From a virus: 41,281 bases of DNA. A model generated the notes under the pieces. That model was not told where the DNA came from, did no database searches, and worked only from the letters and a program-made list of their open reading frames with translations. A program made the position numbers and the translations under genes. Position 1 is the first letter of the stretch; every line of letters starts with the position of its first letter. Below are positions 2,364-19,156 of the stretch, piece by piece. Location of the stretch: the IMG/VR virus record IMGVR_UViG_3300020215_000037, positions 1-41,281 of that record; one strand, written 5' to 3'.

Positions 2364-3424
2364 ATTGATTTCCTCTCAATTCCAAGGATGCAGACACACG
2401 CCAAGAAGATCGACGGAATACCCGTAGGATTCCAGAGCCCAAAGCCGATAAAGGCGGCGATTCCACATAGACAGGCTGTATTGACCTCAGAAGGATATGA
2501 AAACGCCCTATAAGTCATCCTGGTAAGGAGAAAGAGCCATAGCGCGAGCCCTACAAGTCCGGTTTGAATGGCGATATCCAGGAAAACGTTGTGGCAGCGG
2601 TCAATATCGACTTTGAACGCAACGGGTTTGCCTCGGATGTGTTGAGTAATCGTTTCATGCTCACTTTTGCCAAAGAGGGTGCTTTGCGTATCTACTCCGT
2701 AACCCATGACCGGACGGATGGCGATATGCTCTAAAGCTTTCGTCGCAATGGCGGTTCGCGCTCCAGTTCCAAGGCTCTTCAAATCGAGCGTAAGCAGCTT
2801 TGGCAGGACCCCAACAACGGCAATGGCCAAGAGCGTGACTATGGTTGAAATAACCTCCTTGTGAAGCCTCTTGAAGTTCAAAGCCAAGTAGGCGCCTGCC
2901 CCAAACATAAGAGCAAAAATGATAGAGCGGTTACTTGTTAGGAATGTAAAGGGAATCGCGCACGCGATGAAAGCTGGATGTTTGGCCATGAGCATGCACG
3001 AACCAACGGCAGCAAAAGCAGAGATGGTGATATGCCCGTAAATGATGTTCTTATAGATTTCGGGCTTAATAAGCATCACAGAGAGGCAGATTGAGAGAAT
3101 GGCGCAAATGGTCAGAAAAAGACGGGGAAGCGTGGAGCATCTCCAGAAAAGCCAACCGAACCCGATCGCCAGAAGCCACATCGAAAGCCCTTCAAAACGC
3201 TTGTAATAGCCAAAGAGCGACATATCAAAATGATCTCCGAGGAGAGAGCAGAGTGCAGCCCATAGGAACCAAGCGATGAGGAGAATTCCGGGCTCTGAGA
3301 GTCTCTTTTCTGCTTTTGGGTGACAGCATAAGAGGCACATGGCCACGGCAATCATTCGGGCGGTTTGCCCTGAGATGGTCATTGCCGGGAAGAGGAAGAG
3401 GGTCAATAGGGCTAAGTGATTCAT
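2360..3424 (-). CDS. O-antigen ligase/polymerase-like (Wzy_C-type) polytopic membrane protein
   Basis: 354 aa with about 10 hydrophobic spans. The periplasmic loop motif RCHNVFLDIAIQTGLVGLALWLF matches the H-N-x-x-L-x(4)-[EQ]-x-G-x-x-G signature of the WaaL/Wzy family. Confidence 0.6.
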   Translation of the reverse strand: MNHLALLTLFLFPAMTISGQTARMIAVAMCLLCCHPKAEKRLSEPGILLIAWFLWAALCSLLGDHFDMSLFGYYKRFEGLSMWLLAIGFGWLFWRCSTLPRLFLTICAILSICLSVMLIKPEIYKNIIYGHITISAFAAVGSCMLMAKHPAFIACAIPFTFLTSNRSIIFALMFGAGAYLALNFKRLHKEVISTIVTLLAIAVVGVLPKLLTLDLKSLGTGARTAIATKALEHIAIRPVMGYGVDTQSTLFGKSEHETITQHIRGKPVAFKVDIDRCHNVFLDIAIQTGLVGLALWLFLLTRMTYRAFSYPSEVNTACLCGIAAFIGFGLWNPTGIPSIFLACVCILGIERKSI

Positions 3425-3579
3425 GGGCGGGCTCCCTTGGCTAGTTTGGCAATAATGCGTTGAAAGCGGTGTTTATAGCCTCGGTGCCATTTACATATAA
3501 CATCGGCTCTTTCATGAAGGCCAGCCACGCATAACGCTACAAGCTCACGCTCTCTGCTAGATAACCTTGAGCATCTCAT
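3421..3579 (-). CDS. 52-aa LuxR/GerE-type HTH-like protein (below the ORF-track size cut-off)
   Basis: Hand translation: MRCSRLSSRERELVALCVAGLHERADVICKWHRGYKHRFQRIIAKLAKGARP. LSxRERE..L...G and ..K.H...I..KL resemble a GerE HTH. ATGA overlaps occur at both ends. Confidence 0.4.
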   Translation of the reverse strand: MRCSRLSSRERELVALCVAGLHERADVICKWHRGYKHRFQRIIAKLAKGARP

Positions 3580-4175
3580 TTCATCTCCTTGATCTCAATG
3601 TCATCGAGCCAAATCGTCCCCACTCCCTCAGAGACAAAGACCATGTTAAAGAAGTCTGCCGCTCCGGTCTTGAACTTACAATCGGCTTGCGTCCAATCCA
3701 TCGAGCCATCTACTTGATGCGGAATGTAGGTCCTGTCATTCCATTTCGAATCGCAGGTCAGGAAAGCGGGGTTGCCCTTCACGTCCTTGGACTTTACCCA
3801 ATAGGAGAGGATGTAGGCTGTATTTGGTTTGCAGGGGATTCTTTGGTAGATGGCACCGTAGACGTTGGGGCGTTTCTCCTCGTGATTTTCGAGGATGGCG
3901 GAGCATTCCCCCGTATGAGCTTCTTTGTCGGTTTGGCCAATTTTGATGTTGGCTCCCTTGAGTGCAATGAAGCTCTCCCATATCTTTTGTTCCTCAAAGC
4001 CTCCGTTGAGGATCTTGGCCTCGATGGGAGGGCCTTTGACGGGGAGTTCCTTTTGGGTCTGCTTTGAGTAAAGGAGGGCGGCGATGATGATGCCTAGGAT
4101 GGCGATGGTGATGGGGGTTTTTAGGTTGTTCATTAAAATAAGTAAGTAGCGGAGGATGTTTTGCTCAGGGGTCAT
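3576..4175 (-). CDS. Membrane-anchored carbohydrate-binding-module-like (CBM4/9-like) protein
   Basis: N-terminal TM segment PITIAILGIIIAALLY. This is followed by ILNGGFEE..W, then a beta-rich domain with YILSYWVKS and a C-terminal IWLDDIEI, as in CenC-type CBMs. Confidence 0.5.
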   Translation of the reverse strand: MTPEQNILRYLLILMNNLKTPITIAILGIIIAALLYSKQTQKELPVKGPPIEAKILNGGFEEQKIWESFIALKGANIKIGQTDKEAHTGECSAILENHEEKRPNVYGAIYQRIPCKPNTAYILSYWVKSKDVKGNPAFLTCDSKWNDRTYIPHQVDGSMDWTQADCKFKTGAADFFNMVFVSEGVGTIWLDDIEIKEMK

Positions 4176-4820: not shown

Positions 4821-5627
4821 TTATGGGGTCTTTGGGGTTTCTTGCGGGGGAGTGGGGTTAGTGGTTATTTGGCACATGATTTCTTTGAGGAAGATTTCCG
4901 CAACTTGCGGAACGATTGAGTTTCCGAGAAGGTCGCGTCGGTGTGATCCTTCGGGTATCCCATCATCCACTCTCTGTGGTTCGGATGTTGAGGACCACCA
5001 AGTTGCGTGTTGATCCCATCCCCGCTTGTTGCCGATGCCCCTTTGCGGTTCCAATCTCCACATACTGTTGGAGTCGAGAGCATCCTGTTGAGCTTCGCTT
5101 TCCCATGACTTCCTCCGTTGCCATCCTTGCAAGGAGTAGGCCAAAATCCAGACTCGGTCTCGGCGATGATTTGCACCAACGGCGGAAGCTGGTACACAGT
5201 TCCAGATAACATCATGCCCGAGCGCGGCCAAGTCCCTGAGAACTCCTCCAAAGACCCGTCCAGCATCATTTGAAAGGAGTCCTGGCACATTCTCCAGCAA
5301 GCACCATTGGGGCCGAATTTCGCCAATGACTCTGCACAGTTCGGGCCATAGGTGCCTTTCGTCGGAATCTCCACGCCTCGACCCGGCGAGGCTGAAAGGC
5401 TGGCAAGGAAAGCCTCCTGTAATGACATCCACATGGCCAATGAGTTCCTTGGCGATGTTTCGGATGTTTCCGTAGTTCGGCACTCCTGGCCAATGCTTTC
5501 GGAGGACGGCGCAAGCGTAGGGGTCGATCTCCGAGAATCCGATTGTGCGGAATCCAGCTCGTTCTCCGGCAAGGCTGAAGCCTCCGATTCCTGAGAAGAG
5601 GTCAAGCAAGGTGGGCTTTTCATTCAA
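4821..5627 (-). CDS. dcm: DNA (cytosine-5) methyltransferase, short-TRD phage type
   Basis: Motifs appear in canonical order. They are FSGIGG (I), GFPCQPFS (IV, catalytic Cys), LLENVPG (VI), HRRDRVWILAY (VIII) and LLGNSIVPQVAE (X). Confidence 0.9.
   Translation of the reverse strand: MNEKPTLLDLFSGIGGFSLAGERAGFRTIGFSEIDPYACAVLRKHWPGVPNYGNIRNIAKELIGHVDVITGGFPCQPFSLAGSRRGDSDERHLWPELCRVIGEIRPQWCLLENVPGLLSNDAGRVFGGVLRDLAALGHDVIWNCVPASAVGANHRRDRVWILAYSLQGWQRRKSWESEAQQDALDSNSMWRLEPQRGIGNKRGWDQHATWWSSTSEPQRVDDGIPEGSHRRDLLGNSIVPQVAEIFLKEIMCQITTNPTPPQETPKTP
4865..5623 (-). CDS. 252-codon ORF in the +1 frame, fully embedded in dcm (candidate overprinted gene)
   Basis: Uninterrupted from an ATG 4 nt after the dcm ATG. 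It encodes SGTWPRSGMMLSGTVYQLPPLV..ESGFWPTP and NHREWMMGYPKDHTD. See findings. Confidence 0.3.
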   Translation of the reverse strand: MKSPPCLTSSQESEASALPENELDSAQSDSRRSTPTLAPSSESIGQECRTTETSETSPRNSLAMWMSLQEAFLASLSASPGRGVEIPTKGTYGPNCAESLAKFGPNGACWRMCQDSFQMMLDGSLEEFSGTWPRSGMMLSGTVYQLPPLVQIIAETESGFWPTPCKDGNGGSHGKAKLNRMLSTPTVCGDWNRKGASATSGDGINTQLGGPQHPNHREWMMGYPKDHTDATFSETQSFRKLRKSSSKKSCAK

Positions 5628-6256
5628 AGCGCTCCCTCCCCCTTATTCTCTTTGTCTGCCGCCGAGGAAGGCGGAGGAGTTGCGGGCTCTCTCGAAGGAA
5701 TGGCGTTGTCCGTCGTTTGTGGCTCTTCCTTCGCGTCTTTACTGAAAAGCGCGTTTACTATGGCTTGAACTGTTAAGGATTCCTGAACTGATGGCGACAT
5801 GCGGCGGCGAATAGGCATACTTTCAGGCTGGACGCGAGGCCCCTCCAAATCGCAAATGCTCTTCCATGCTAACGTGTCACTATGGAAATATTCATCTCCT
5901 AAACGTGGTCCTTCTCCAACCTCTAACAGCCTCCACCCGCCCCCGCTCTGGGCTCGGGCTTCTTTCAGCTTCAAGATATACCTCTCCCGTTCGCGCTCCA
6001 TCAATTTGATGTTGTGATTGAGGCGTCCAATGTCGTTGTCCTTGTAGCGAATGGAACCTTGAGCCTTCTCCACCTCCTCCTTGAGAGCGGCGTTTTCAGC
6101 CTCAAGAGCTTTGATCTTTTCTGTGAGGGGTGAAAGTGTCGCTTCTGCCAGTTCTCGCCCCAACTTACTAAACGAGTCATCCTTAGGAATGGGCTGAGGC
6201 TCGCAAGTCGTCCCGTGTGTGAACCATGGCTGACCGCATGAAGGGCAATTACTCAC
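5624..6256 (-). CDS. Coiled-coil protein with N-terminal CxxC knuckle
   Basis: MSNCPSCGQPW, followed by a heptad-like KIKALEAENAALKEEVEKA. ATGA-coupled at both ends. Confidence 0.55.
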   Translation of the reverse strand: MSNCPSCGQPWFTHGTTCEPQPIPKDDSFSKLGRELAEATLSPLTEKIKALEAENAALKEEVEKAQGSIRYKDNDIGRLNHNIKLMERERERYILKLKEARAQSGGGWRLLEVGEGPRLGDEYFHSDTLAWKSICDLEGPRVQPESMPIRRRMSPSVQESLTVQAIVNALFSKDAKEEPQTTDNAIPSREPATPPPSSAADKENKGEGAL

Positions 6257-6662: not shown

Positions 6663-7093
6663 AAATCTCCTTTGGTCTTTGACGGCTCTTGCGCGAGAGG
6701 AAGGGGCTCGTCGGTTTGATCCTGTACATGCCGAAGGTCACCCGCCTTCCACATATCCAATTCTCCTCGCTCATATTTATCGAAGCAGGATTTGCAGGCA
6801 TCACACCCAAACCATTCTCCGTCCCAGCCGTGAGGTACCGGCGTGCCTTCGTACATGGGGATACCTTGCTGACATCCATAAAGCTTTTCTCCGCAGATAT
6901 GGCACTCGGACTCGTGCAGCCACATTCTATTAATCGTAATCCTCACAGGCTCGTCCACACGAGGAGATGCTCCCTCCCCCGGTTTCTGCGTTTCAATTCC
7001 TTCGCTCATGGCTTCATTCATTAGTTTATTTGGGTTTAGGGGTGGGCAAGGCAGAGGGGCTACTGGGTGGGGGAGATGCATTGGGGGCCACAT
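6659..7093 (-). CDS. Cys-rich hypothetical protein; start uncertain (7093, 7081 or 7021)
   Basis: Contains CHICGEKLYGC...WFGCDACKSC. The longest form overlaps the 3' end of 7060-7824 by 34 nt. Confidence 0.5.
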   Translation of the reverse strand: MWPPMHLPHPVAPLPCPPLNPNKLMNEAMSEGIETQKPGEGASPRVDEPVRITINRMWLHESECHICGEKLYGCQQGIPMYEGTPVPHGWDGEWFGCDACKSCFDKYERGELDMWKAGDLRHVQDQTDEPLPLAQEPSKTKGDL

Positions 7094-7824
7094 TCGATGT
7101 CAGGCTCCGAATCGAATCGTCCGGCGTTTGGATCTAGCTCGTCCAAGAAAACCCGCTGCGTTACACCGTTCTTTGATAGTTTGAGAATCGCGTAACCGAT
7201 CTCCCGCTCTACGGCTGCAACGCGGTTAAAATGCTCAGGGAAGTCCTTGCGAATCTTGTTGAAGTAGCCAGCCCCACCCTTTACGCATCCGATACAGTTG
7301 TTATTTTTGTACCCCAATAGGTACATCGCTGGCATCGTGATCCCAGCCTCACGAATGATTCTGTAGCAGTCGGACTTCGTAACGCCTCGATCTCTTAGAA
7401 TCCAATCGCAATCAAGACCGTGGTTGTCCCTTTCGAAGTCCGTGATCCGGCCGGATTCGTCGGCTGTCATGCCGTAAATATCCGTGTCTCCCAGTTGACG
7501 ATAGGCTTTGCCAACCGCGCGTTTCAGTAGCTTCGTGCAGGGGGCTCCGTGGTGCCCCACAATGAATTGCTCCCCTCGAAACACTTCCATAATATCGGCG
7601 TACTTCGGATGTTTGAGGATCTTAACCTCTTTGCCGATCCACCTGGAGACATCAGCCATGAACCTTGCATTGTCTGGGTGCTCAAACTTGAGGGTGTCGC
7701 AATAGAGGATTTCCACTTGGTCATTGGGATACTTTTCAACTGCGAGTTTTGCGGCTACGGTAGAAGCAGCCCCACACGAGAACCAGACAAGTATCCGGCC
7801 TTGAAACATGAAGGTCTGTCTCAT
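7060..7824 (-). CDS. PAPS-reductase-family (PP-loop ATP pyrophosphatase-like) protein
   Basis: ILVWFSCGAAST (a variant of the SGGxDS PP-loop) is followed by VEILYCDTLKFEHPD. There is a C-terminal Cys cluster NNCIGC and CGPQC. Start set at ATG 7824, which is ATGA-coupled to the upstream stop. Confidence 0.55.
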   Translation of the reverse strand: MRQTFMFQGRILVWFSCGAASTVAAKLAVEKYPNDQVEILYCDTLKFEHPDNARFMADVSRWIGKEVKILKHPKYADIMEVFRGEQFIVGHHGAPCTKLLKRAVGKAYRQLGDTDIYGMTADESGRITDFERDNHGLDCDWILRDRGVTKSDCYRIIREAGITMPAMYLLGYKNNNCIGCVKGGAGYFNKIRKDFPEHFNRVAAVEREIGYAILKLSKNGVTQRVFLDELDPNAGRFDSEPDIECGPQCISPTQ

Positions 7825-8309
7825 GCGATGCCAATTACACGACCACCACACGACGGACAGCTCTCGCCTACGGAGATGGCGTTATGGTTAATCGGACATT
7901 CCACCTCCCCTTTCGACGCTTCCTCTTTGGCAGGAATGCAGAGGGCCTCTTGGATTCTCAGCTTTAATTCGCTGGCGTCGTAGTCTGTCATTAGCTCCAT
8001 CAGAGCGCCCTCGGCTTTACCAAGACAGTCCCGCAATGTCTCCATCTGCCCCCTTGCCGCTTCCAGCTCCCTCTCCAGCCTCTCGAACTCGTTTTTGTCA
8101 TGCAGGTTCAACCCGCAATAGCTTGTTCCTTCATCCCCTGAGACGATATGGGGGCATGGCTTGGACCGGAGGGCTTCCAGCTCTGCCTCAAGCTCTGAGA
8201 TGTGGGAGAGGAGTATGAGGTATCCGTCGTTGTAAGGATTGTGGGGCTCGATAGCCTTCATGGCTTCGGCTCCGTTCTTCATCGTTTGTAGATCGTCTTT
8301 GGTCATCAT
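7821..8309 (-). CDS. Coiled-coil protein with C-terminal Zn-ribbon
   Basis: ELEAELEALRS and ERLERELEAARGQ heptads. The C-terminus reads CPINHNAISVGESCPSCGG. Confidence 0.5.
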   Translation of the reverse strand: MMTKDDLQTMKNGAEAMKAIEPHNPYNDGYLILLSHISELEAELEALRSKPCPHIVSGDEGTSYCGLNLHDKNEFERLERELEAARGQMETLRDCLGKAEGALMELMTDYDASELKLRIQEALCIPAKEEASKGEVECPINHNAISVGESCPSCGGRVIGIA

Positions 8310-17577: not shown

Positions 17578-17922
17578 ATGAAACCAGCCACTACTAATTG
17601 TGAACTTCTCCGGGCCTGTGAGCTTGCCCCTCTGATTGGCAAGTCTGCTTGGTGGGTCTGTGCGGCTCGAAAGGCCGGGATGCCCTTTTTCTGTGATGTG
17701 ATCACCTACAAGGACGCGGTCAAATGGATGCGGGCGAATCCTGATTTTAACGCGCAGGCGCAGTTTCCGACGAAGGCGCGAAAACCAAGGCCGTCACACA
17801 AGAGGAAAGGTCTTCCACTTTCAACCGCTGATAAATCCGATGAACTTCCACCGACGAATGCCCAACATAGCCCATTGCATCCCGCTCCGAGACCGTCTTT
17901 GAGCGAGCAAGCCTCGAAATAA
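17578..17922 (+). CDS. Excisionase/AlpA-MerR-like HTH protein
   Basis: LLRACELAPLIGKSAWWVCAARKAGMPFF...TYKDAVKWMRANPDF. The low-complexity basic tail overlaps the 3' end of int on the opposite strand. The start may be 17521 or 17578. Confidence 0.45.
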   Translation: MKPATTNCELLRACELAPLIGKSAWWVCAARKAGMPFFCDVITYKDAVKWMRANPDFNAQAQFPTKARKPRPSHKRKGLPLSTADKSDELPPTNAQHSPLHPAPRPSLSEQASK

Positions 17923-18817
17923 CAGTTACGCGCGTGCAATGAAAGCAATACTGAGGCAATCCAATCTTGCGAAAAAAGCGAGTCCATTGGGTGGAAGGTT
18001 GGGACGCGCAAGAAGGCTCCCAAGTGACTTTGCGCTTTTCGGCTTTCAACTTTTTCACAAGAGGGACGAGGCCCTGATGCAATTTAGTCGTGAAGACCTT
18101 CTTTCCTTTGGCGTGGAATTGAATCTCCATTTTCTCAAGGTCGATATGCTCCAGGGGGAGGGAAGTCTCCATGAGTCGGCAGCCTTGATGAAGGCCGATT
18201 TCAAAGGAAATTTGCATCCACTCCGGCCAATCCTTGAGGCCCGCGCGGATCTTCTCAATATCCGTTTCAGTGATCTCAGGCTTGATCTTTGGAGCATCCT
18301 TTTTAATCCCCAGCTCAGCGCATGGGTTGGCCATCGTGAGGTGAAAACGTCGGATAGCCTGCTTCATGAGGAGCTTCAAAACTCGCAGCTCATAAAGGGC
18401 GGTGTTTTTACTGGCGCCCTTTTTCAAGACGGAATGCTTCTTGCGCCAGGGGAAGTAGTCCATCACATGCTCATAGGCGACATGTCGAGGGCTGAGGATC
18501 TCCTTTTCCTTCAAGTAAACGGAAAGGCTGTTCCATGCGCTCTGGTATCGGGTATGAGTTTTACTTTCCTTGGGGTATTGCAGATTGAGGAAGTCCTGAA
18601 CCCAGGCGCCCCAAGCCTCTCCGGAGCTCGCAGAGCCATTCCTAAGCTCATTGGCGGTGGTTGTGGCGCAGAGCTGCTTGGCTTGATTAGTCTGCTTTTT
18701 ATCGTCCCATCGGAAGACTGTTGGTTTTCCAGACCAGTTGCCTTTCCCGTCCTTGGCCTTGATGTACCAAAAGGGAGATTTTTTAATCGTGTAGAGGCTC
18801 GCCATGGAGTTCACCAT
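17747..18817 (-). CDS. int: Tyrosine recombinase (phage integrase)
   Basis: Catalytic signature: GCRLMET (Arg I), FHCTRVT (H-x-x-R) and GHSSVEVHRIY (His/Tyr). It is adjacent to the attP candidate. Confidence 0.85.
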   Translation of the reverse strand: MVNSMASLYTIKKSPFWYIKAKDGKGNWSGKPTVFRWDDKKQTNQAKQLCATTTANELRNGSASSGEAWGAWVQDFLNLQYPKESKTHTRYQSAWNSLSVYLKEKEILSPRHVAYEHVMDYFPWRKKHSVLKKGASKNTALYELRVLKLLMKQAIRRFHLTMANPCAELGIKKDAPKIKPEITETDIEKIRAGLKDWPEWMQISFEIGLHQGCRLMETSLPLEHIDLEKMEIQFHAKGKKVFTTKLHQGLVPLVKKLKAEKRKVTWEPSCASQPSTQWTRFFRKIGLPQYCFHCTRVTVISRLARSKTVSERDAMGYVGHSSVEVHRIYQRLKVEDLSSCVTALVFAPSSETAPAR

Positions 18818-18826
18818 AGTTCACCA
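18808..18826 (+). repeat. Two tandem AGTTCACCA repeats (arm-type Int-binding site candidates)
   Basis: AGTTCACCA at 18808-18816 and at 18818-18826. They overlap the int start codon. Confidence 0.5.
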
Positions 18827-18903
18827 AGAAATCAAAATCTAGCCCATTTAAGCCCTAACCTTACCTATGGGCCACAAATTAAACCAAAGACATCTCACCT
18901 GGC

Positions 18904-18941
18904 TACGAAACGCAAGCGCTCTACCACTGAGCTAAGCGCGC
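18904..18941 (-). other. tRNA gene 5' half (acceptor stem, D-arm and anticodon stem, into the loop); attP core candidate
   Basis: The minus strand reads GCGCGCT TA GCTC AGTGGTA GAGC G CTTGC GTTTCGT. T8, A14, G18G19 and A21 are in place. Downstream sequence has no anticodon-stem complement and no T-arm. Confidence 0.55.
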
Positions 18942-18956
18942 TGGGTAAATTTGGTG

Positions 18957-18976
18957 AGTTCACCAAAAGTTCACCA
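18957..18976 (+). repeat. Two more AGTTCACCA repeats on the other side of the tRNA-like core
   Basis: AGTTCACCA at 18957-18965 and at 18968-18976, in the same orientation as the first pair. Confidence 0.5.
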
Positions 18977-19156
18977 AAACCCGCCCTTTCCAGCCGTCTG
19001 AAAGGGCTCCAAGTGACCGAAAGCCTGCCCTGTCAGGGGCGGCGTTTCAACTCCTTTTTCCCGCCGCGCCACGTGGCCCCCTGTACTTCGGCTTTTGCTC
19101 GTCCAGGGCATTCCTGTGGAGCGGCGGCGTCTTTTCTCAACCTTAACTAAATCCCC

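Follow-up and report, generated by a model that had tools for sequence, protein, structure and literature searches.

A nested +1 reading frame inside a phage C5-cytosine methyltransferase gene probably encodes a second subunit of the same enzyme

Can a single stretch of phage DNA, read in two overlapping frames of the same strand, encode the two halves of one enzyme? This question is raised by the virus record IMGVR_UViG_3300020215_000037 of IMG/VR, whose 41,281 nucleotides (nt) are hereafter called the window. On its minus strand lies a C5-cytosine methyltransferase gene (frame A), and within this gene a second open reading frame (ORF) of 252 codons is found in the +1 frame (frame B). A sequence-only reading of this DNA had drawn attention to the two ORFs, proposing either an overprinted gene pair, or a protein family that arose from, or is mis-called in, the +1 frame of dcm genes. 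Both ORFs were found at the positions it gave, and the peptides it had quoted in parallel from the two frames were all correct. We estimate at about three in four the probability that the locus encodes a two-subunit C5 methyltransferase with a nested beta gene, similar to M.EcoHK31I. Frame A would encode the alpha subunit, and frame B the beta subunit, which is most likely the DNA-recognition subunit of the enzyme.

The first issue is whether frame B is open by chance. Synonymous codon shuffles that preserve protein A and its codon usage yielded a +1 ORF as long as this one, 252 codons or more, in 0.33% of cases (P = 0.0033). The figure of 5e-6 put forward initially, from a naive uniform-codon expectation, thus overstated the rarity of the ORF. 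In the window, the first ~60 codons of frame B are open with a probability of about 0.09. For comparison with relatives, 213 loci were collected: 80 viral loci retrieved with frame-B patterns (L001-L080), 80 retrieved with frame-A patterns only (L081-L160), and 53 loci from bacterial genomes, including isolates. The patterns used for the first set were TWPRSG and GTAYQLPPLV, which biases codon-phase statistics at those codons, and analyses were repeated on the loci retrieved by frame A only. Similarity to Dcm and similarity to the frame-B family were found on the same nucleotides in 213 out of 213 loci, with B always in the +1 frame of A. These loci belong mainly to Alphaproteobacteria, and also to Planctomycetota, Myxococcota, Acidobacteriota and Streptomyces; strains of Sphingobium, Labrys and Methylorubrum are among the sequenced prophage hosts.

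For 60 distinct loci selected through frame A only, we counted +1 stops and compared them to 200 synonymous shuffles per gene. In the 5' flank, which runs from the start of alpha until 11 codons ahead of motif IV, 182 stops were observed for 158 expected; in the 3' flank, which begins 16 codons ahead of motif X and extends to the stop, 114 were observed for 97 expected. Between these two flanks stops are almost absent: a single one, for 187 expected, in the interval that opens 10 codons ahead of motif IV and closes with motif VIII, and again a single one, for 77 expected, in the variable region. The interval from motif IV-10 to motif VIII is stop-free in 59 of the 60 loci, when 3.4 were expected. 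The stop-free span has sharp boundaries, ~10 codons ahead of motif IV on one side and close to motif IX/X on the other, and the +2 frame of the same genes contains 10-30 stops per gene, all along. This pattern indicates that the +1 ORF is under selection of its own, rather than an artefact. It does not extend to the whole 252 codons taken as the feature by the sequence-only reading: in relatives, stops are not avoided over the first ~60 codons, the conserved part covers only ~189 codons, from Met64 (position 5434), and the additional 63 codons upstream of Met64 are probably incidental.

We next asked which frame is under selection along the gene. Briefly, mismatches were counted by frame-A codon phase in pairwise, frame-blind blastn comparisons, with 12-150 aligned pairs per codon in the most variable part of the target-recognition domain (TRD) and hundreds at the PTP and motif-IX flanks. 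In the frame-A-retrieved set, mismatch rates at phases 1, 2 and 3 were 0.188, 0.136 and 0.532 before motif IV, 0.242, 0.146 and 0.423 from motif IV to motif VIII, 0.248, 0.119 and 0.117 from 'PTP' to motif IX, and 0.204, 0.091 and 0.420 from motif X onward. For the variable region of the frame-B-retrieved set, they were 0.435, 0.108 and 0.086. As phase 1 of frame A is phase 3, the wobble position, of frame B, and as it is the most variable position between motifs VIII and IX, this segment evolves as frame B. The selected frame is thus successively A, B and A along the gene. The switch from A to B takes place at the last residues of motif VIII (VWIVA, then PTP), and the switch back to A at, or just after, a motif-IX-like element. 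Small patches of double constraint, such as the W-P of TWPRSG, are found from motif IV to motif VIII, where the phase-3 rate is lower (0.42 versus 0.53). Codon phase therefore points to a catalytic domain selected in frame A, and a variable region and motif IX selected in frame B.

Could frame B nevertheless be a shadow ORF or an annotation artefact, its similarities reflecting the overlapping dcm frame and gene callers having picked the wrong frame? Part of this explanation is correct. Upon back-translation by hand of the B-family alignment, its motifs correspond exactly to Dcm motifs: SSQESAAS to LFSGIGGF, AASPARTS to GGFPCQDxS and SSWRTSQ to LLENVP in the N-terminal part, as well as SGMM to LG(Y/H)D, DETESGLWPTP to RRDRVWIVAxx and TPSSRKS to GNAVVPQV. 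Judging from these correspondences, much of the similarity in the N-terminal part of beta is a +1 shadow of Dcm motifs I, IV, VI, VII and VIII. All examined B homologues are on dcm loci, a possibility raised by the sequence-only reading, substitutions from motif IV to motif VIII are of the frame-A type, beta is not predicted to fold, and GenBank phages annotate the methyltransferase only. However, a shadow ORF fails to explain why +1 stops are purged (1 versus 187 expected) when the flanks of the same genes are at expectation. Nor does it account for a wobble placed, from motif VIII to motif IX, at A phase 1, or for the conserved B modules (WPTP..., NRKGASATSGDG) found where the frame-A reading is unalignable. 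Chance levels of stops and frame-A periodicity throughout, which characterize a mis-called frame, were not observed. We consider this explanation very unlikely. The purging of stops within sharp boundaries, together with the frame-B periodicity between motifs VIII and IX, argues that frame B is a genuine overlapping gene. Location on the +1 frame of dcm genes does not, given the stops and the codon phase, make the family an artefact. The products of the pair are most likely subunits of one enzyme, not two unrelated proteins.

What does each frame encode? In profile and homology searches, both translations have significant matches. Alpha matches Pfam PF00145 above the gathering threshold (167.2 bits for a cutoff of 22, expectation value (E) 8.5e-49), TIGR00675 (138.9 bits, threshold 100.65), and phrog_363 over its full length (E 1.6e-77). 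Its motifs are in order in one frame: I (FSGIGG, residues 11-16), IV (GGFPCQ, 71-76), VI (ENV, 112-114), VIII (HRRDRVWILA, 154-163) and X (GNSIVPQVAE, 235-244). Frame A is therefore canonical in its motifs, as the sequence-only reading stated, but it is not the complete enzyme described there, since nothing conserved or foldable was found between motifs VIII and X. The AlphaFold model of alpha (113 sequences) has a predicted local distance difference test score (pLDDT) of 82 and a predicted template-modelling score (pTM) of 0.77; pLDDT is above 90 over most of residues 1-170 and the motif-X helices, with confident helices at 228-256, and only 41-45 for residues 184-221. With Foldseek, 162-170 columns only, of the ~327 residues of M.HhaI and M.HaeIII, were aligned to this model, corresponding to the large-domain half (E 4.5e-15, root-mean-square deviation 1.7 A, TM-score 0.47 normalised to the target). 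A folded small domain, made of a TRD and motif IX, was found between motifs VIII and X of the alpha chain neither by homologue alignment nor by codon phase, AlphaFold or Foldseek.

In alpha homologues, the reading between motifs VIII and X is variable and unalignable. What had been taken for a short TRD of frame A is, by these comparisons and the model, an unconserved linker predicted to be disordered. Yet frame A is open from motif I to motif X in 65-75 of 80 loci, including across the B-selected region, which suggests that alpha is translated through this linker as a spacer. VADT, VADA and MADT strings recur in the linkers of alpha homologues P0121-P0136, and are the frame-A shadow of the beta WPTP modules; such strings could be used as a quick diagnostic of the nested-beta architecture.

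The frame-B family is a large one. Frame B matches phrog_1008 (E 1.2e-25), and a word-indexed search returned 154 homologues at 30-50% identity. In an exhaustive profile search, the family profile matched 49,001 representative clusters (50% identity) at E<=1e-3, and 11,390 at E<=1e-30. The strings that the sequence-only reading had put forward as recurrent in phage and prophage proteins are thus real. The phrog_1008 family is labelled 'DNA methyltransferase' and matches the +1-frame product, not the methyltransferase frame; this label probably derives from chimeric or mis-framed members. The variable region of beta is made of PTP/WPTP modules, in varying number, plus NRKGASATSGDG. It is followed, directly upstream of motif X, by an element of consensus LNPxWVEWLMGFPxGWT (HREWMMGYPKDHTD in the window). 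In position and pattern, this element resembles motif IX of C5 methyltransferases, a likeness that Pfam and PDB profiles did not confirm.

Where would beta start? In relatives of low guanine-cytosine content, the last +1 stop is found 16-11 codons before the F of FPCQ, with an ATG right after, at -15 to -10 codons from motif IV, often behind a Shine-Dalgarno core, as illustrated by AAGGAGGATATCAATG in locus L126. Such cores precede 19 of 43 candidate beta ATGs; among the other out-of-frame ATGs the count is 131 of 661 (odds ratio 3.2, p 7e-4). This gives weak ribosome-binding-site support for such a start. Beta probably starts internally, near the equivalents of Met64 and Met66. A longer form may also exist. 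In the window, the strong Shine-Dalgarno sequence AAGGGGGAGGGAG precedes both the alpha start and the first frame-B ATG, the latter by 8 nt. This ATG is 4 nt downstream of the alpha TTG, as initially reported; the letters of the region had been misquoted as ATGAATGAAA, and read TTGAATGAAA. The upstream ORF (5624..6256) shares its frame with B, and its TGA (5624-5626) abuts the B ATG (TGAATG) and overlaps the alpha TTG (TTGA). One Shine-Dalgarno sequence could therefore serve both starts, so that a 252-amino-acid (aa) beta initiated at ATG 5623 is possible.

The succession of selected frames A, B and A could also suggest a single chain, produced by two programmed frameshifts, the first (+1) past motif VIII and the second (-1) ahead of motif X. 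A chimera assembled by hand along these lines does read as canonical (...RDRVWIL-PTP...EWMMGYPKDHT-RRDLLGNSIVPQ). Such a chain would leave unexplained both the ~100 stop-free codons of B upstream of the switch and the opening of A through the B-selected region. A conserved slippery site and a zero frame soon closed, the marks of programmed frameshifting, were not seen: codons -3 and -2 of the junction vary at positions 1 and 3, with rates of 0.29-0.45. The switch from B to A differs in position between locus sets, being after GWT in the frame-B-retrieved set and before GxP in the frame-A-retrieved set, and the A-B-A chimera is no better than frame A against PF00145. Finally, we know of no gene that needs two opposite frameshifts. 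We regard this explanation as highly improbable. When the chimera was used as a query, no single-chain relative was found, the top matches being all of the alpha type with unrelated linkers. The disagreement over GxP (GFP in beta, GVP in alpha) lies 13 to 6 codons before motif X, and opposes L081-L160 to L001-L080; two sub-families may exist that differ in their beta C-termini.

Gene decay would be another way to obtain a long B ORF, as a by-product of indels. Mosaic ORFs in which indels fuse the frames do exist: the database proteins P0060, P0095, P0111 and P0123 are chimeric, and in L001, the closest relative of the window gene, the frame changes within the variable region. There (2900-3760 of IMGVR_UViG_3300020202_000035, protein P0123), the alpha frame continues into the C-terminal part of beta (…QLNPQFVEWLMGYPIDHT…), beta is cut short, and the third frame holds motif X. 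An indel from assembly, a pseudogene or another way of arranging the subunits could account for this, and the frame-fused ORFs as a group are pseudogenes, assembly errors or variants. In the window, by contrast, neither ORF is broken, their register is the standard one, each family landmark lies in its expected frame, and no loss of a family-invariant residue or frame was seen. Decay of the window gene is therefore barely credible.

Several observations weigh against a two-subunit enzyme. Frame B has no match in Pfam or NCBIfam, and its family profile, compared with all PDB sequences, retrieved no C5 methyltransferase, only a chance match to RpoD (E 1). Alone, beta is predicted to be essentially unstructured (AlphaFold with a 117-sequence alignment, pLDDT 58, pTM 0.20), and its one predicted helix coincides with the motif-IX-like element. 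On PF00145, the A-B-A chimera scored 163 bits and frame A 167 bits, a comparison made uninformative by unmatched C-terminal parts; two alternative C-terminal halves, also run against Pfam, gave no gain. The frame that owns the GxP of motif IX is not the same in the two locus sets. Beta starts are not uniform, as 17 of the 60 loci have no ATG at -16 to -5, and only 44% of the candidate starts have a Shine-Dalgarno core. In M.EcoHK31I, the predicted TRD is placed in alpha, not in beta, according to PMC2836561 and PMC3404938. The putative TRD and motif IX of beta were recognized by position and, by eye, from their pattern, and the case for beta expression and function is a comparative one.

Alternatively, beta could be a genuine translated overlapping gene with another function, such as a regulator, an anti-restriction or a DNA-binding factor, alpha having some other partner or being inactive. 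Beta has no detectable match, in sequence or structure, to methyltransferase small domains, and its N-terminal half is rich in S, T and P and disordered. A subunit that becomes ordered on its partner could well give such a disordered lone model, yet the disorder is not evidence for one. Against such a non-subunit function, the B-selected segment is exactly at the position of the small domain of C5 methyltransferases, between motifs VIII and X, and ends with an element resembling motif IX, while alpha has nothing else there. Moreover, alpha and beta are strictly co-inherited at all examined loci, and M.EcoHK31I is a direct functional precedent. We consider this alternative unlikely, and keep a two-subunit methylase as the favoured reading.

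A scheme for the two-subunit enzyme would be as follows. Frame A would be translated into alpha, the catalytic large domain binding S-adenosylmethionine, with motifs I-VIII and then X, a disordered linker taking the place of the small DNA-recognition domain. Frame B would be translated into beta from an internal site just before motif IV (Met64/Met66), and possibly from ATG 5623 too. Beta would comprise the motif IV-VIII region as an N-terminal extension, followed by the recognition region (PTP/WPTP, NRKGASATSGDG) and the motif-IX-like element. The two would associate into an active enzyme that protects the DNA of a temperate phage. In this scheme, the translation of beta, its start, its association with alpha, its need for activity and the target sequence are inferred. 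A broader proposal, for which we have a slight preference only, is that in a very large phage and prophage family the entire DNA-recognition domain, and not only motif IX, has moved into the nested +1 gene. If so, specificity modules (the WPTP repeats) evolve in another frame than the catalytic scaffold, and their alpha-frame reading is a mere spacer. The oddity of M.EcoHK31I would then be a common design, a large family of 'hypothetical proteins' would gain a function, and the published domain assignment of M.EcoHK31I (TRD in alpha) would merit re-examination.

Coordinates of the features discussed are collected in Table 1. From 5434 downward, beta also reads the frame-A-selected segment, which gives it an N-terminal extension with a sequence mostly imposed by alpha.

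Table 1. Features of the nested methyltransferase locus, in window coordinates.
Feature	Position	Strand	Description
Alpha ORF (frame A)	4821..5627	minus	268 aa; TTG start (5627); stop 4821-4823; C5-cytosine methyltransferase large domain
Maximal frame-B ORF	4865..5623	minus	252 aa; +1 frame of alpha; ATG 5621-5623
Putative beta ORF, conserved core	4865..5434	minus	189 aa, from Met64 (ATG 5432-5434) to the stop
Second candidate beta ATG (Met66)	5426-5428	minus	Inside the conserved core
Candidate ribosome-binding site AAGGAA	5445..5450	minus	11 nt 5' of beta Met64; within the alpha variable loop preceding motif IV; read from the sequence
Frame-A-selected segment	5139..5627	minus	Alpha residues 1-163, motifs I-VIII; from codon-phase mismatch rates
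Frame-B-selected segment	4937..5140	minus	Beta residues 162-229, PTPCKDG...NRKGASATSGDG...HREWMMGYPKDHTD; variable (target-recognition) region and motif-IX-like element
Alpha 'linker'	4983..5138	minus	Residues 164-215 (YSLQGWQRRK...WWSSTS); frame-A reading of the putative beta recognition region; open, unconserved
Alpha C-terminal part	4824..4940	minus	Residues 230-268; motif X GNSIVPQVAE at 4896-4925; frame-A-selected again
Alpha translation start (putative)	5625..5644	minus	Shine-Dalgarno AAGGGGGAGGGAG (5632-5644), then TTG (5625-5627); read from the sequence

The window is that of a temperate phage, with an integrase, an Erf-like annealing protein, a helicase and a large terminase detected by PHROG scans, and the methylase is located in a leftward operon of small unknown ORFs. 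Some 1.4 kb upstream, in the same leftward gene block, is a gene similar to PAPS (phosphoadenosine phosphosulfate) reductases (7060-7851, minus strand; phrog_424, E 9.5e-46), which may form a DNA-modification module with the methylase. A plus-strand ORF of 403 aa (17939-19150) lies antisense to, and overlaps, the gene of the integrase (17747-18817, minus strand; phrog_1, E 1.4e-28). This ORF has no PHROG match and is probably spurious.

The architecture has consequences for annotation, as gene callers permit one gene per DNA stretch. In the public protein collection, the gene call for the window locus is the frame-B product (P0001, 100% identical, unnamed, on a contig of 41,295 bp). The best alpha-type match to the A-B-A query is only 74% identical, from which the methyltransferase appears to be absent from the collection for this record; gene calling seems to have favoured the +1 ORF, with its ATG, over the real enzyme, which starts with TTG. 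In GenBank phages the reverse choice is made, the methyltransferase being the one annotated. Either way, public annotation records one of the two genes. Databases contain frame-B products by the tens of thousands, as hypothetical proteins without a Pfam family. Codon optimisation or synthetic recoding of such a phage 'dcm' would silently destroy beta, and probably enzyme activity as well. The family is also an unusually clean natural case of long same-strand overlap, in which selection alternates by domain, with enough homologues to study how overlapping genes originate and are maintained. More speculatively, a modular recognition subunit of varying length may permit quick changes of methylation specificity.

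How does this gene compare with known systems? To our knowledge, M.EcoHK31I is the one well-studied example of a methylase with a nested beta gene, and the only one proven experimentally. This enzyme of E. coli HK31 (Lee, Kam and Shaw 1995) needs both alpha and beta chains for activity, according to PMC2836561 and PMC3404938. In these descriptions, alpha carries motifs I-VIII as well as motif X, and beta, which carries motif IX, is encoded wholly inside the alpha gene in another frame. PMC2836561 adds that N-terminal residues of beta affect association, and that internal Met codons can start beta. By this published description, the window locus is alike in having a second ORF nested in the alpha gene, in another frame and conserved among relatives, and an alpha that holds motifs I-VIII, along with motif X, and is selected in frame A there. 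It is unlike M.EcoHK31I in that the whole VIII-IX region appears to be selected in the beta frame, the alpha version being a linker predicted to be disordered. M.EcoHK31I also belongs to a restriction-modification system, whereas the window gene is in a temperate phage where no endonuclease was identified. A blastn search against 5,426 E. coli genomes gave no match, and plasmid matches were only to generic 'DNA cytosine methyltransferase'.

M.AquI of Agmenellum quadruplicatum is a C5 methyltransferase that is naturally heterodimeric, its split falling inside the variable region (PMC3404938). The split is end to end, alpha having motifs I-VIII together with a portion of the variable region, and beta the rest and motifs IX-X. 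In the window, motif X is in the alpha frame and selected in it, and beta is nested rather than appended, so that an M.AquI-type split does not apply. With the monomeric enzymes M.HhaI and M.HaeIII (PF00145), alpha shares the catalytic motifs and the large-domain fold, but their small domain (TRD and motif IX), present on the same chain, is absent from alpha.

The locus finally resembles overprinted genes of viruses, by its long same-strand +1 overlap in a phage genome, with two frames that would both be translated. In the usual case, overprinting gives rise to a new protein on top of an existing older gene. The two frames of the window locus appear instead to hold complementary parts of one ancestral enzyme, each stretch being under strong amino-acid selection mainly in one frame. 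Among the papers searched, none describes a family-wide nested +1 beta pattern. What seems to be new, from the comparison of loci, is that this phage gene is a nested-beta case, that its architecture is common to hundreds of phage and prophage loci, and that the whole variable region, beyond motif IX, is selected in the beta frame.

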